A stretch of DNA of 32,691 nt from Gammaproteobacteria bacterium (lineage in GTDB: Bacteria > Pseudomonadota > Gammaproteobacteria > GCA-001735895): contig QIJI01000471.1 in NCBI GenBank assembly GCA_003231795.1, positions 1 through 32,691 of the forward strand. The letters run 5' to 3'. A model generated the notes under the pieces. The model made no database searches. It was given only the letters and a program-made list of their open reading frames with translations, and was not told the origin of the DNA. The translations under genes were made by a program, and so were the position numbers. Each line of letters opens with the position of its first letter. Within the stretch, counting starts at the first letter, position 1. Shown here one piece after another: positions 1,058 through 27,738 of this stretch.

Positions 1058-4000
1058 GTGCGTAAACTGGGACTAATTGTTGCTTTATGGTTGGCGGTAT
1101 TGCTGCCGACGAACAGTCATGCATTAGGTCTGGGCGAGATTGAGGTCAAATCATTCCTTAATCAGCCGCTACATGCAGAGATCGAAGTAATTTCGGCACG
1201 CGCTGGCGAAATAGATGATTTACTGGTAAGCCTGGCATCGCGTGATGCTTTTAACCGGGCAGGTCTGTCACGGCCACGCCATCTATCCGATCTCAGGTTT
1301 ACAGTTAAAAAGAGTGAAGATGGTGAGCAGGCGATTGTTATCGTCACAACCAAAGCTGGCGTTAAAGAACCTTTCCTGAACTTTCTTGTTGAAGCCGACT
1401 GGTCAAAGGGGCGGGTGCTTCGAGAATTTACCATATTGCTCGATCCTCCTTTCTATGCTGAGCAATCTGCTCCGGCAGAGCCGGCCGCTAGTCCGGCGGT
1501 AGAACCGGCTGTTTCTGATGATTCCAGTGTCAGCGAAATCGTAGAGCAAACCGGGGTAACGACAACCACGGCTGAAAGCGACGAGCAGATCACCGAACCC
1601 ATAGCTTTAACCGAAGATACGGTCGAGACGGAGCCATCCGTAGAGCCATCCTCTTCGGAATTTATCGCAAGCGAATCGGCAAACATTATCGAAGGTGATG
1701 TTTTAGTCGTTAAGGGCGATACGCTTTGGAGCATAGCATCACGTTATAAGGACGATGCTCACAGCATGGCGCAGGTAATGCTGGCATTTCAGCGCGTCAA
1801 CCCTGATGCATTTAACAGCGGTAATATCAACAACTTAAAGGAAGGTGCGATTCTTCGCGCCCCGAGCGCAGACGAAATCGATCTGTGGGATAACCAGGAG
1901 GCTTACGCCGAAGTACTGGTGCAAAATGGTTTGTGGGACGATTACGTTGAACGCGTAACGGGTGTTTCGCAGTCCATTGCTGCCGAGGGTAGCGAAGGCG
2001 AGGTTTCAACCGATCAGAGTAGTGGCGAATTAAGTCTTTTACTGCCAGGTGACGGTGATACTGAATCAACCGGTATTAGTGAAGATGCCGGTGTTGGCGA
2101 ATTGCGTACCCGACTCGCGCTGGCAGAGGAAGAGCTCGAAGCGTCCAAAATCGAAAACTCCGAACTCGAATCCCGAATCGCCGAACTTCAGGCACGTTTG
2201 TCTAAAGTTGAAGAATTGCAAAGAATGGTTGAGATCGAAGACGACAGTCTCGCCCAATTGCAGGCAGATCAAGCTGAGCAGGCCGAGGCCGTAGAAGAAA
2301 CTGCACCACCGGAAACGGTTACCGAAGCGATAGAAGCGGATGAAGAGGCGCTGCTAGAAGAACTACTGGCGGAAGAAGCCGCTGCTCAGGCTGAAGAACA
2401 GGCGGTTGTTGATGGAACCGCCGAGATGGTTTCAGATGATACGCTCGTAGATGATGACGTGATGACCGATAATATGGTCAGTGACGATACGATGTCGGAA
2501 GCAGATGCGGCTGATGCTGACGCGGCTGATGCTGACGCAACGCCACTCCCTGCACCGATCATAGTCACTGAATCTGTTGCCCGGGCGCCATCCATTTTCG
2601 ATGGCATATTGCCCCCGAATATAATTGCGATGATCCCGTCAATGCCTTCGATGGGAGGTTTGCTCGGTGATCCAATTATTCTGGCAGCTGTTGGCGGCGT
2701 TATTGTACTGCTACTGATTCTGGTCATAGTAAAACGCCGCAAAGCCGCTTCCGAGGATGATTCTGACAGCGCTGAAGATAGTATTTTCGCCGACGAAGGA
2801 GATGAGGAACTGACGCCGATTCACATGGCCGAAGGCCAATCCGATGAAACGGATATCAAGATTCCCTCCGATAAAGAGTTAAGCGTTGAACCTGCAAAAC
2901 CCGAAATCGTTGCCGAGGATGATGAAGAAGACGAGTTCTCAAGCACTGCCATCATTTCGCAGCAGGATATGCCTGAGCCGGAAGCTCCGGCACCAGCGGC
3001 AGCTAGTGCAGAACAAGACGATGTATTAAACGAAGTCGATGTTTACCTGGCCTATGGTTTATATGACAACGCCGAAGAGTTGCTGACCAGCAATCTTGAG
3101 ACGAACCCGGAACGCGCTGATTACCGCTCAAAGTTATTGGATACTTATTTTGCCACCAAGAACGTGAATGCATTTGTCCAGGAAGCAGATAAATTGAAGT
3201 CCATGGGTGATTCTGGCGGCGATTACTGGGATCGTGTACAGGTTATGGGCTACGAACTGGCCCCTGAGAATGCGCTGTTCTCTGATGCCAAGGATAGTGG
3301 CATGAGTGCCGCGGACCTCGAGATAACCAAGCCGCAGGAAGCGGATTTTGATCTCGGTGCATCAGATGAAGATGATACCAATTTCTCAACCACCGATTTT
3401 AATCTGGGCGAGGATGATACGGGCGGTGATTTTAGCGATACGGCATCCATTGGCGAGGCCGGAGATGTCTCGGCAACGCAACAGATTCAACGCCTGGATG
3501 ACGATGAATTACCTTCGCTGGACGATGATGAGACCAATATCCGGGAACCGGTAACTGATGAACCGGTTCTGGAATTGCCCGATGATATCGGCGAAGAGCT
3601 CGAATTTTCAATGGACGATGCGGCGGAAAAACCCGCCGGCGATGATGCTATGGAATTGCCAGGCGATCTTGATCTGGGTTCGGACGACGAAGAGGAAATT
3701 ACCGCAGAACCTCCGGTTGCGGGGGAATCAGATGAAATGGCGATGGATTTTGATATCGGAGACGACGCAGCGGAAGACGACTCCGAATTGGACCTGGGCG
3801 CTGAGTTCGAGGCTGCTCTGGAAGAGGCCGACGATCTTGATGTTGATGAAGCTGATCTTATCCCGTTTGAAAAAAGCCTGGATGATGAGCCCGATGATGC
3901 TGCTGTAGAAATTGACGTGGCGGCTGACGATGCCCTCATTTTTGAAGAAACCGCGATTGTCGACACCACCCCGGGTTATGAAGAACCGGCCGAAAATCCG

Positions 4001-6422: not shown

Positions 6423-7286
6423 ATGAACTGGTTTGAATCGCTGTTGCCGTCGAAAATCAGAACGTCAGGGGGTAACGACAAGAAGAACGTACCCGAGGGG
6501 CTGTGGGCGAAATGTGGTTCCTGTGATGCGATCATCTATCGAGCCGAGCTGGAGCGTAATCAGGAAGTCTGTACCAAGTGCGATCATCATATGCGGATTT
6601 CGGCACGCCGCCGGCTGGGATCGTTTTTTGATGAAGATAGCACCCATGAAATTGCCGCCAATATCGAGTCCGTCGATGTGCTCAAATTCAAGGACGACAA
6701 AAGATATCGAGATCGGTTGAGCCAGGCGCAAAAACGTACCGGTGAAAAAGATGCGCTGATCGTAATGCGCGGCAAGGTACTTGGTGTTGAAATGGTAGCG
6801 GTTGCATTTGAATTTCAGTTTATGGGAGGTTCGATGGGCTCTGTCGTCGGCGAAAAATTTGTTCGAGCGGTAAATACGGCTATTGAACACGGTATACCGA
6901 TGATCTGTTTTAGCGCAAGCGGTGGTGCCAGAATGCAGGAAGCTCTCTATTCGCTATTGCAAATGGCTAAAACCAGTGCTGCGTTAACCCGGCTGTCACG
7001 TCGTGGCCTGCCTTATATCTGTGTCTTAACTGATCCGACCATGGGCGGTGTCTCGGCCAGTTTGGCTATGCTGGGCGATGTTCAGATTGCAGAGCCCGGC
7101 GCGTTAATCGGATTTGCCGGACCCCGGGTTATCGAACAAACCGTTCGGGAAACTCTACCCGAAGGATTTCAGCGGAGTGAATTTCTGCTGGATCACGGTG
7201 CGCTGGACATGATTGTAGATCGTCGACAGTTACGTCAGAAAATCAGTTCCCTGTGCACTATGCTGATGGGGCAGGCCGCACCCTAG
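6423..7286 (+). CDS. accD: acetyl-CoA carboxylase carboxyltransferase beta subunit AccD
   Basis: N-terminal Cys4 zinc ribbon (CGSCDAIIY...CTKCDHHMR) and a carboxyltransferase core ([18 protein letters not shown]). A ggag SD sequence precedes the ATG. The stop TAG (7284-7286) is formed at the left end of the repeat element. Confidence 0.95.
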
Positions 7287-7551
7287 TGGTCGAACAACTA
7301 AGGTTTGATGGATACAGAGTGCCCCAGGTGATCTGGAACAAGGCGCAGCCCGCAGGGAATGGCATGTCCTTTTCAAGGGTTGCAACGCAGTGCCAGATCA
7401 CCTGGGGCGCTCCCTTCGGGCGAGGCGGGAAGCGGTCATTCGCTTTGTTGCGCCTTTCGACAAGGGCTGGGCCATTGCCTTCAAGGCGCGTCGCGCGACT
7501 GACCGCTTCGCGTCTCGCTGTATCCATCAAACCTTAGTTGTTCGACCACTA
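7284..7551 (+). mobile_element. MITE-like, TIR-bounded structured element, copy 1 (268 nt). The strand given is the one on which the G.U pairs are allowed.
   Basis: Perfect 34-bp terminal inverted repeat: tagtggtcgaacaactaaggtttgatggatacag (7284-7317) against 7518-7551. Internal stems are 7318-7336/7393-7411 and 7421-7443/7495-7517. A second copy lies at 24744-25034 in the opposite orientation. Confidence 0.8.
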
Positions 7552-7619
7552 GAGCTCTTTCAACACTGAAAACACCCCCTTTTAGCACCCTGGAGCAATG
7601 GCTCGAATGGCAAACGTCG

Positions 7620-18039: not shown

Positions 18040-18115
18040 TATTCATTCCAGTGAATGCTCCAAAATTCACTAGAATCAGGAAAGGTAAGTAAATTTTCTG
18101 GCAGTTTAAGGTGAT

Positions 18116-18199
18116 CCGAGGACCGCGGCGTATATAAAATACGTGAGGATTCGACGGCCCGGTCCACCGGCACGCGACCAACGCCACAATCGCGTAAAA
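18116..18199 (+). repeat. unit A of the tRNA-spacer duplication (shorter paralog of the core of unit B)
   Basis: Shares ccgagga, accgc.g.gtata...tgaggattcga and ccaacgcc.caatcg..taaaa with 18233-18355. By hand alignment the identity is about 75-80%. Confidence 0.55.
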
Positions 18200-18201
18200 G
18201 A

Positions 18202-18229
18202 TTGACGATTAGAAACCGGTAGTTAAGAT
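18202..18229 (+). promoter_or_regulatory. candidate internal sigma-70 promoter ahead of the tRNA-Arg/His/Leu genes
   Basis: ttgacg (18202-18207), a 16-nt spacer, then taagat (18224-18229). A degenerate paralog of the -10 region (tttaaggtg) precedes unit A. Confidence 0.4.
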
Positions 18230-18236
18230 GAACCGA

Positions 18237-18376
18237 GGATGCCTTTCTAAGCGCCTATTTTAGGCGAGTGCAAGGCGGCAGCACGCGCAGAACCGCAGTG
18301 TATACAGATATACATGAGGATTCGAGCATGCTGCCAACGCCGCAATCGTCTAAAATAGGCACTTAGAAAGGTATCC
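18237..18376 (+). ncRNA. rod-like, roughly 140-nt structured leader (unit B) abutting tRNA-Arg, function unknown
   Basis: 31-position outer stem 18237-18267/18346-18376 (28 Watson-Crick pairs, 2 G.U, 1 C.A). It continues with tgc/gca, ggcg/cgcc and gcagca/tgctgc, and is capped by hairpin tgtata-caga-tataca (18299-18314). It ends 3 nt before tRNA-Arg. Confidence 0.5.
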
Positions 18377-24743: not shown

Positions 24744-25034
24744 TAGTGGTCGAACAACCAAGGTTTGATGGATACAGCGCGACGTGAAGCGGTTAGTCGC
24801 GCGACGCGCCTTGCAGGCAATGGCCCGGTCCTTGTCAAAAGGCGCACCAAAAGTAGGCGCCCTGAGGCGACAAAGCGAATGACCGCTTCACGCCTCGCCC
24901 GTAGGGAGCGTCCCAGGTGACCTGGCACTGCGTTACAACCCTTGAAAAGGGCATGCCATTTCCTGCGGGCTGCGCCTTGTTCCAGGTCTCCTGGGACGCT
25001 CTGTATCCATCAAACCTTGGTTGTTCGACCACTA
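24744..25034 (-). mobile_element. MITE-like, TIR-bounded structured element, copy 2 (291 nt), inverted relative to copy 1
   Basis: Perfect 34-bp TIR (24744-24777 against 25001-25034). The reverse complement aligns end to end with 7284-7551, apart from a 23-nt insertion (about 24847-24869) and scattered substitutions. Confidence 0.8.
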
Positions 25035-25791: not shown

Positions 25792-27681
25792 ATGCTGCTA
25801 GCAATTCGTGAAAAAGTATCGGGATGGCTTGCCTATGGCATCATCTTTCTAATCAGTATCCCATTCGCGCTGTTCGGTGTGAATTCGTATTTCGGTGGTG
25901 GTGCAGTTTCCCCGGCGGCAACCGTCAACGGTGAAGAAATAAGTCTGCGTGATTTCGATCGGGAATATGCAAATTACCGCCAGCGGCTTGCACGTCTGTT
26001 TGGTGGAACTATACCGGATTCTTTTGACAATGAGACAGCACTACGCCAGCAGGTTTTGAGTCAATTGGTTGAGAATATCGTGCTTCAACAATATACCGAG
26101 GAACGTTATTATCGAATCAGCGATGAGGCGCTCAGCCGAATCATTCGCGAAATGCAGGAATTCCACAGCAATGGGCAGTTTGATACTGATACCTACCAGG
26201 CACAATTGCGTTCGATTGGTGCCTCACCTTTAGGATTTGAGCAAAGACTCAGACAAAGCCAGGCAATGAGTCAATTTCAGAACGGAATACAGGCAACTGC
26301 ATTTGCAGTCCCCGTGCAGGAGAAGTGGTTTGCCAGTTTGAACAGTCAATCTCGCAAAATCCGTTCGCTTAATTACAGTGTTGGCCCAGGCGGGATAATG
26401 GTTGATGCGCAAGACATAGAACAACGCTACCAGTTAACGCCGGATAGGTTTCGTACCTCTGAGAAAATTAAAATTGAATATATTGAGATTAATCTGGCCA
26501 GCATTACAGAGAGAATCAGCGTCGATCGGGAAAATAGCTATGCGCGCTATCAGGAAAGTCTCGAGGCCTATTCCAGTCCGGAGGTGCGTGACGCCAGCCA
26601 TATACTGATTCAGGTTTCGGGCGAGGAGAATGAACAGGCACTAGCGCAAATAACCCGGATTCGTGAGCGTCTTGATAATGGTGAAAGTTTTGCCGACCTG
26701 GCACGGGAACATTCGCAGGATACAGGCTCTGCCGGGGATGGCGGTAGTCTTGGTGAAGTTGAGCGCGGCATCATGGCACAGGCTTTTGAGACATCTTTAT
26801 TTTCACTGCAGCCAGGGCAGATAAGTGAGCCGGTGAAGACAAATTTTGGCTGGCATTTAATTCAATTGCATAGTGTTAGCGGGGGTGAAGCCCAATCCTT
26901 CGAGTCTGTCAGAGCAGAGATAGAAGACGAAATTAGAGCCGGACTCGCCGAAGGGCAGATTTTTGAAATAGTGGAGACTCTGGCGAACCTGGTTTACGAA
27001 CAATCAGATTCACTGTTGGCGGCAGCCGAACAGCTCGATCTGGAAATTGAAACCAGCGACTGGTTTGAACGTTCTTCCGGAGAGGGTATCGCCGCTCAAC
27101 AAAAAGTTAGACAGGCTGCATACTCTGCCGAGGTGTACCAGTTGGGTCTCAATAGTGAGGCCATAGAACTCGGTGACGAATCCGTTGTCTTTATCCGTCT
27201 CAAGCAAGTTAAAAAATCCGAGTTGCAACCGCTAGAGCAGGTCAGCGATCAAATTCGAAACGAATTGATTCGGAGTAAAACACAGGAACAGAATCTGGCT
27301 GCAGGCACGAGTGCACTTTTGGCATTAAAACAGGGTAAGAGTCTGGAGCAACTTGCGAACGACTGGTCATCCTCTATTGTTGACCACGGGTTTGTTGCGC
27401 GTGATCAGGCTGAAGTAGATAACCTGATAAAAAGAACTGCGTTCAGAATGCCTAAACCGGATCAGGGGATGGAATACGAAGGGCTACCTCAGCCTGATGG
27501 TAGCTACAGTATTGTCGAATTGTCGGCTGTTATCAGTAATGATTTTGGTGCCGACGATGACTTGCTGGAAGGCATGAGCAGTGCCAATGCGGAAGCAGAT
27601 TACCAATCCGTCTTGAAACTGCTAAGTAGCCGTGCCGAGGTAATACAAACTCCGCTTGAAGACCTCGATTTTCTTAACTAG
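25792..27681 (+). CDS. ppiD: periplasmic chaperone / peptidyl-prolyl isomerase PpiD
   Basis: N-terminal membrane anchor (WLAYGIIFLISIPFALFGV), a SurA-like N-domain and a parvulin domain (ASHILI...FADLAREHSQDTGSAGDGGSLGEV...GWHLIQL). Position after hupB is conserved. Confidence 0.9.
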   Translation: MLLAIREKVSGWLAYGIIFLISIPFALFGVNSYFGGGAVSPAATVNGEEISLRDFDREYANYRQRLARLFGGTIPDSFDNETALRQQVLSQLVENIVLQQYTEERYYRISDEALSRIIREMQEFHSNGQFDTDTYQAQLRSIGASPLGFEQRLRQSQAMSQFQNGIQATAFAVPVQEKWFASLNSQSRKIRSLNYSVGPGGIMVDAQDIEQRYQLTPDRFRTSEKIKIEYIEINLASITERISVDRENSYARYQESLEAYSSPEVRDASHILIQVSGEENEQALAQITRIRERLDNGESFADLAREHSQDTGSAGDGGSLGEVERGIMAQAFETSLFSLQPGQISEPVKTNFGWHLIQLHSVSGGEAQSFESVRAEIEDEIRAGLAEGQIFEIVETLANLVYEQSDSLLAAAEQLDLEIETSDWFERSSGEGIAAQQKVRQAAYSAEVYQLGLNSEAIELGDESVVFIRLKQVKKSELQPLEQVSDQIRNELIRSKTQEQNLAAGTSALLALKQGKSLEQLANDWSSSIVDHGFVARDQAEVDNLIKRTAFRMPKPDQGMEYEGLPQPDGSYSIVELSAVISNDFGADDDLLEGMSSANAEADYQSVLKLLSSRAEVIQTPLEDLDFLN

Positions 27682-27738
27682 TTGTTCGACCCCTGGCTTA
27701 AGCAAACTCAAGTTCGATAACTATTTTCCGGCGGCCGG

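Follow-up and report, generated by a model that had tools for sequence, protein, structure and literature searches.

The spacer between accD and folC in the window (the whole stretch of DNA analysed here, 32,691 nucleotides of contig QIJI01000471.1) is most probably occupied by a non-autonomous MITE, moved in trans by a DDE transposase and inserting at CTAG, a reading to which we give a probability of roughly 85%. The element has moved, its copies sit at a recognizable target, several of them provide the stop codon of the abutting gene, and the pairing of its interior is conserved among copies. The family was previously undescribed; the kind of element is ordinary. We conclude that it represents a new CTAG/TA-targeting MITE family of uncultured marine Gammaproteobacteria and a genuine, well-defined feature.

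Copy 1, copy 2 and their empty alleles

Copy 1 lies on the forward strand at 7284–7551, between the genes for AccD and FolC, and measures 268 nt with both flanking TA (core GTGG...CCAC, 7286–7549). An earlier note on this DNA had described a perfect 34-bp TIR, and the two arms of this outer helix P1 (5' arm, 7284–7317; 3' arm, 7518–7551; both given on the forward strand) are indeed exact; with the flanking C/G counted, 7283–7317 and 7518–7552 are 100% complementary over 35 nt. Searching the window for the 34-nt arm gave four occurrences, and none of 100 shuffles gave any match. Inside P1 lie hairpin P2 (7318–7411, forward strand), with a covarying stem and a highly conserved apical segment, a junction linker, cccttcggg (7412–7420, forward strand), and hairpin P3 (7421–7517, forward strand). 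The 19-bp core of P2 with its single G.U, as previously proposed, was confirmed by eye, and the complementary stretch extends to 23 nt at 91% (7317–7339 with 7390–7412). P3 was likewise found, as 24 nt at 88% complementarity (7420–7443 with 7495–7518), together with the predicted inner stem gcgcctt/aaggcgc at 7450–7456/7483–7489. The cUUCGg motif to which the note drew attention is present in the linker, but its UUCG varies among copies (TACG in copy 2, TATG in L021). As RNA, copy 1 has an MFE of -178.9 kcal/mol compared to a shuffle mean of -97.3 (z = -16.9), and the MFE fold contains P1, P2, a 2-bp mini-hairpin in the linker and P3.

Neither the 94-aa nor the 90-aa ORF spanning copy 1 matched Pfam, and the 23-nt indel that distinguishes copy 2 would frameshift any ORF over the P3 tip. 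ORFs such as 7253–7537 are spurious products of the element, in line with the earlier view that it holds no transposase and no convincing ORF.

The nearest AccD relatives of the window, all 287-aa proteins, include alleles in which this site is empty. In L032 (AccD 94% identical) a single CTAG, containing the accD stop, is found; the site reads gcaccCTAGcgc and the junction without the element is gcaccCTAGcgctttcc. The window reads gcaccCTAG-TGGTCGAAC...GTTCGACCA-CTAGagctctttc, with the element between two CTAGs, and L032 is without exactly the 7284..7551 block. L033 (AccD 88% identical) is also empty, and the spacer thus grows from about 30 nt in the empty state to about 300 nt with the element. 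The left CTAG (7283–7286) is the target or its duplication, as TA within CTAG or as the whole CTAG, and the right one (7549–7552) is the second copy of that target. A TA target-site duplication had been suggested for this site; the duplication itself stands, with one CTAG in the empty allele and two in the filled one, but its size of 2 or 4 bp is ambiguous, since CTAG is palindromic and duplication of TA cannot be distinguished from duplication of CTAG.

The second copy occupies 24744–25034 on the reverse strand, in the lon–hupB spacer and in the opposite orientation to copy 1. It is 291 nt long, about 92% identical to copy 1 over aligned columns, and its P3 tip contains an additional module of 23 nt. 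Two relatives, L038 and L040 (Lon 97% and 95% identical), lack it; their lon–hupB spacer measures 279 nt against 566 nt in the window, and the gap in the alignment is exactly the element. Relatives are therefore empty at both window positions, which answers the search for empty sites proposed in the note, and the element accounts for the oversized accD–folC spacer as well as for the lon–hupB spacer of this genome. The junction of copy 2 is imperfect and not a textbook duplication: the empty alleles read CCGA (L038:3960–3975) and the filled allele TA (24744–24745). More distant relatives do not have this segment of the spacer, so that the direction of the CCGA/TA change is not readable from them; a footprint, a polymorphism that predates the insertion or imprecision of the insertion itself may lie behind it.

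The accD site is a hot target, since a different MITE with a related end sits there in L031 (AccD 93% identical). It occupies the same accD stop-codon site, at 3362–3537 (176 nt with flanking TA), and has a TA-flanked, 22-nt TIR, GTGCTCTTTCAACATGATAATT. Its end reads GTGCTC... against GTGGTC... in the accD–folC element, with a likeness only over GTG-TC---CAAC, and its interior has a 31-nt module in common with the CTAG-targeting family. Searching the window with the TIR of the L031 MITE gave no match. The right flank of copy 1 at 7553–7566, GAGCTCTTTCAACA, resembles that TIR. L031 was also considered as proof of a 2-bp duplication and rejected, because the stop before insertion may have been either TAG or TAA and one mutation is needed under either model.

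Copies at unrelated loci, the CTAG target and captured stop codons

When 185,579 species-representative genomes were scanned for the TIR core, the family turned up in two MAGs, one labelled Gammaproteobacteria bacterium Cli_6 and the other uncultured Haliangium sp. A single hit in a MAG labelled Actinomycetota (L010) matched the search pattern alone and was treated as chance. The metagenome scan added 20 more loci, and BLAST/nhmmer combined with inspection yielded about ten further full or near-full copies with unrelated flanks, beyond the two in the window. The check for other copies that had been recommended thus points to a mobile element, present in at least 12 independent sites plus remnants. 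Its sources are uncultured Gammaproteobacteria MAGs, the Haliangium-labelled MAG and marine metagenomes. Contigs of the Haliangium-labelled MAG (CAXMQY01; L001–L004 and L007) have a GC content of 0.53–0.58, which is low for Haliangium, and this MAG may carry a wrong label or be misbinned, or the element family may have crossed phyla. BLAST of the element against plasmids returned nothing, and the three 18-mers matched in a scan of viral contigs stand alone in otherwise dissimilar sequence, as expected by chance.

Complete copies at separate sites are the two in the window (W1, copy 1; W2, copy 2) and those of L002, L012 (the site of L029 and L020), L016, L017, L024 and L026. They range from 268 to 304 nt, and the TIR is conserved in all aligned copies. 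Others are cut by contig ends (L005, L008/L009, L013, L015, L020 and L021); seven contigs end inside the element, as expected of a multi-copy repeat, and it can be flagged as a breaker of MAG assemblies. Truncated copies were found in L001, L006 and L014 (the site of L023), and solo ends in L004, L007, L018, L025 and L027/L030. In L019/L028 a left end is followed by about 50 nt of unrelated sequence ending in CCACTAG, possibly a short derivative. Finally, a TA-flanked 27-nt mini-hairpin, GTGGTC-N15-GACCAC, recurs at two unrelated sites, L003 and L011/L022. Judged from their sequence, the solo ends, half copies and recurring mini-hairpin look like the decay products typical of transposons. The mini-derivative, GTGGTCGAACAACCAAGGTTTGACCAC, is identical at L003:2839–2867 and L011:5919–5947 (L022 is the same site), with TA on both sides; hairpin deletion may have produced it repeatedly, or it may be a very small derivative that can still move. 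An additional partial element end (GGGTCGAACAACTAG) was seen at L013:3176–3192, 40 nt upstream of the full copy.

The window itself holds a probable right-end remnant of about 18 nt (aacTAGTTGTTCGACCcCTgG) at 27676–27696 on the forward strand, a short and weak match (16/18) that, on its sequence, may be a third, decayed insertion. Separately, spacers of the tRNA cluster (18100–18376) contain two related segments of about 70 nt, GTATAnA...ATACnTGAGGATTCGA...CAACGCCnCAATCG, and a 35-nt inverted repeat (18237–18271/18342–18376, 89% complementary); these are another small repeat family.

The four bases just outside TGGTCGAAC are CTAG at 26 of about 34 independent ends, and at the remaining ends they are one base off. 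With copies at unrelated loci, pairs of filled and empty sites, and CTAG or TA at nearly all ends, the MITE-like reading of the earlier note is borne out. The element combines a TIR, a target duplication, small size without coding content and multiple unrelated loci, the features by which bacterial MITEs are generally recognized.

Insertion at CTAG has a direct consequence for neighboring genes. The gene accD spans 6423–7286, and its TAG stop (7284–7286) doubles as the first three bases of the element. No fewer than six abutting genes use the element's terminal TAG as their stop, namely those for AccD (copy 1), a DsbA-like protein (L024), a TPR protein (L021), CysZ (L013), a PilZ protein (L008) and, at a solo end, an SDR (L025). 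The truncated copy of L014 provides the last codons and the stop of citrate synthase, and the probable remnant in the window likewise gives the stop (27679–27681) of a 629-aa ORF, 25792–27681. We attribute this capture to the CTAG target together with purifying selection against intragenic insertions, and it offers a clean natural example of a target specificity, CTAG/TA, by which insertions are channelled to stop codons and the transposon itself then provides the stop.

At accD the insertion also affects the downstream gene. In the empty L032, the called folC start is an in-frame GTG (L032:1609) that overlaps the accD end, and that allele has no other canonical in-frame start ahead of the conserved N-terminus of FolC. 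The homologous GTG of the window, at 7253, opens the 94-aa ORF 7253–7537, which ends in the right TIR, so that the insertion cuts this start off from folC. The stretch from the element to QWLEWQ, a conserved motif at the FolC N-terminus, contains no ATG, GTG or TTG; canonical folC starts begin only past this motif, with TTG 7620, and folC may start in the window at a conserved CTG, 7566. Since the only canonical upstream start of the empty allele is severed, the effect of the insertion on folC deserves attention.

We propose that a DDE transposase encoded elsewhere would bind the 34-nt TIRs and insert the element into 5'-CTAG-3', the duplicated target being either the central TA, as for IS630/Tc1-mariner, or the entire CTAG, as for IS5-type elements. 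As CTAG holds the stop codon TAG, intragenic insertions would be purged and the survivors would be those at or just past gene ends, where the terminal TAG of the element would then work as a stop codon, as at accD. P2, P3 and the hairpin-tip indels would be inherited from master copies of the family. About 250 kb of examined loci, the plasmids and the viral contigs yielded no autonomous element with the same TIRs, and neither a transposase nor a partner end was found beside the single-end loci (L004, L006, L007, L025, L018, L019 and L027), whose neighbors are ordinary genes (RtcB, rubrerythrin-like, LipA/LipB, UspA and TRAP). We infer a parent transposase of the IS630 type, which is the origin we favor. 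According to Tenzen and Ohtsubo (1991), as cited in PMC2170065, IS630 prefers TA within CTAG and makes a 2-bp duplication, and the same preference is seen at the 26 ends described above. For ISY100, TA is duplicated in vitro and the TIRs alone suffice (literature, with PMC2170065), and RUP is mobilized by IS630-Spn1 (Delihas, PMC2229807).

We consider it rather unlikely, though worth weighing, that the MITE was instead derived from the IS5 family, with a 4-bp CTAG/YTAR duplication, and not from IS630/Tc1-mariner. IS5 targets YTAR, and a CTAG on both sides of the element with a single one in the empty site fits a 4-bp duplication equally well; the TIR also holds CGAACAA, as do real IS5 ends, GGAAGGTGCGAACAAG (E. 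coli K-12). Whichever duplication model is assumed, however, this common heptamer does not fall in register with the IS5 end; it is all that is shared, and kinship with IS5 through CGAACAA was rejected on these grounds. Moreover, the IS5 TIR is 16 nt long and starts with GG, whereas that of the element is 34 nt long and starts with (G)TGG, and at imperfect sites the TA is retained at both ends in more cases than the complete four bases are, which is a weak argument in the same direction.

Paired changes and modules of the interior

We mapped the structure of copy 1 onto an alignment of 12 copies (A2) and used an explicit pair count in place of RNAalifold, which missed P1 with truncated rows. 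In this alignment 93.3% of cells pair, compared to 33–43% with partners slid, and 21 pairs are altered on both sides, compared to 0–7 slid; a count of 21 was reached in 0 of 500 shuffles. Two-sided changes include those at 10 of 22 stem pairs in P2, at 5 of 24 in the outer part of P3 and at 3 of 10 in its inner part. In the subfamily formed by L016, L005, L008 and L013, 10 of the 22 P2 pairs are swapped for other Watson-Crick pairs, while an apical P2 segment of about 45 nt and the linker GCGCTCCCTTCGGGC are almost invariant even in this 70%-identical subfamily with its rewritten P2 stem. Such near-invariance is not predicted by a purely passive interior. The helices predicted in the note are thus real and maintained by paired substitutions, and what it had envisaged for an ordinary decaying MITE, random substitution without preserved pairing, is not the pattern among these copies.

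At the DNA level the paired changes would fit hairpin-templated correction, or else they would fit selection on a folded single strand. Template-switch (hairpin-templated) correction of quasi-palindromes can yield paired changes without selection. The interior structure is real and conserved, and it may act at the level of DNA or of RNA, or not at all.

Long hairpins maintained through paired changes, which dominate the structure, would also be expected of a hairpin-dependent single-strand element without a classical DDE transposase, either REPIN/RAYT-like or derived from IS200/IS605, and the vertical inheritance through which REPIN-type elements persist would agree with that origin. To our knowledge, REPIN/RAYT and IS200/IS605 systems have neither target duplications nor long TIRs, whereas here the CTAG/TA target is duplicated and the TIR measures 34 nt; furthermore, no RAYT or TnpA gene lies near any examined locus. 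We regard this origin as highly improbable, and retain mobilization in trans by a DDE transposase.

The earlier note had left a choice between a MITE-like repeat, a structured RNA or both; the MITE stood, but an RNA function did not find support in Rfam, in an excess of G.U pairs or in a uniform orientation. Once transcribed as part of the accD–folC or lon–hupB mRNA, the element would fold into two arms on a perfect duplex of 34 bp, and it could be an RNase III/processing site or a stability element, as for Correia/NEMIS. Any effect at the RNA level is something we infer from the fold, and a dedicated RNA function is unproven. That the element is primarily a functional structured RNA carried between transposon ends, as a cis-acting processing, stability or insulator module or as a small RNA, with the three-way junction, the P2 apex and the linker under selection for that function, seems to us very doubtful. 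Such a role would explain the excess of pairing and of two-sided changes over slid and shuffled controls, the nearly constant apex and linker beside the rewritten P2 stem of the L016/L005 subfamily, and the very strong fold, and it has a precedent in the RNA hairpins of Correia/NEMIS, which are RNase III substrates (PMC2229807).

Against it, Rfam, queried at gathering and permissive thresholds with copy 1 and the divergent L016, returned only sub-threshold hairpin look-alikes, the best of which, a miRNA model matched as a generic hairpin, scored 31 bits where its threshold is 70 bits; the Rfam check proposed earlier therefore gave no match at or above the gathering threshold. Copy 1 has no sigma-70-like promoter or terminator, and around copy 2 promoter and terminator matches occur at chance level only. 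G.U and A.C mismatch columns are balanced (18 versus 14), with P1 and P2 leaning to G.U and P3 to A.C; this test gave no consistent signal of a strand-specific G.U excess, and with P2 and P3 leaning oppositely no single strand looks selected. The element lies in either orientation with respect to the gene that it abuts, at about 7 to 4. Some stem pairs show all four allele combinations, C.A mismatches included, and hairpin-templated correction can in general mimic selection on pairs.

Additional modules are found in the arms. A 36-nt module lies in the P2 tip of L002, L005 and L008 and also in the different MITE of L031; a second, of about 21–23 nt, lies on the 3' side of P2 in L016 and L024; a third is the 23-nt module in the P3 tip of copy 2. 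The second and third share a 17-nt core, GCACCAAAAGTAGGCGC, in opposite orientation (core regions at window 24841–24874, L024:3929–3958 and L016:3006–3027). A weak resemblance between P3 and the reverse complement of P2 (z = 3.1) suggests an ancient inverted duplication. The invariant P2 apex and junction, the tip modules present inverted in both arms and the piece found in the L031 MITE raise the idea that the interior is a selected, portable structured module, or else that the terminus marks the transposase lineage that moves Correia elements; we hold this pair of proposals to be quite unlikely. The portable module could be a folded single-strand mobilization signal, or an RNA element which the host puts up with or makes use of, one that could for instance rely on RNase III processing to separate the accD stop from the folC start or to connect the two.

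Comparison with known families

The TIR string was met in the searchable literature only as an unrelated plant primer. With the 26-bp Correia repeat (published sequence tatagtggattaacaaaaaccggtacgg, PMC5039591), to which the note had likened the ends, 11 of 14 terminal bases agree (TAGTGGnnnAACAA in the element, tatagtggattaacaaaa in Correia) and nothing beyond (PMC5039591), so that the resemblance is confirmed at the termini but kinship is not established. Both lie between genes, have TA at their termini and long TIRs, and give transcripts that fold strongly. We know of no transposase for Correia elements, nor for the accD–folC element; if the parent of the latter were found, its Correia-like terminus could hint at how Correia elements move.

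In other respects the two differ. Correia elements are about 107–155 bp long, with a single stem, an IHF site and promoter motifs, whereas the element measures 268–304 nt and has two interior hairpins. In Correia, TAGTGG follows the duplicated TA; in the accD–folC element, the TA is part of TAGTGG. Their host is Neisseria, while the hosts of the element are uncultured Gammaproteobacteria, of a different phylum and class. Membership in Correia/NEMIS was rejected because repeat sequence, size, architecture and host all fail to agree, which bears out the view that the element is otherwise unrelated to them.

Like RUP and other IS630-derived MITEs, the element is non-coding, bounded by TIRs, inserted at TA, intergenic and multi-copy, with mobilization in trans. 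RUP, however, measures 107 nt with a 9-nt TIR (table of Delihas, PMC2229807), compared to 268–304 nt and a perfect 34-nt TIR here, and the element differs further in its modular two-hairpin interior, in its uncultured marine gammaproteobacterial hosts and in that no cognate IS was found. ERIC/IRU and BOX also are imperfect palindromes with internal insertion modules, transcribed with neighboring genes (PMC2229807), but they have short or no TIRs, no CTAG specificity and no sequence similarity to the element. Taken together, the element acts like RUP, Correia and other TA-targeting MITEs (PMC2229807) and is a member of none of these families.
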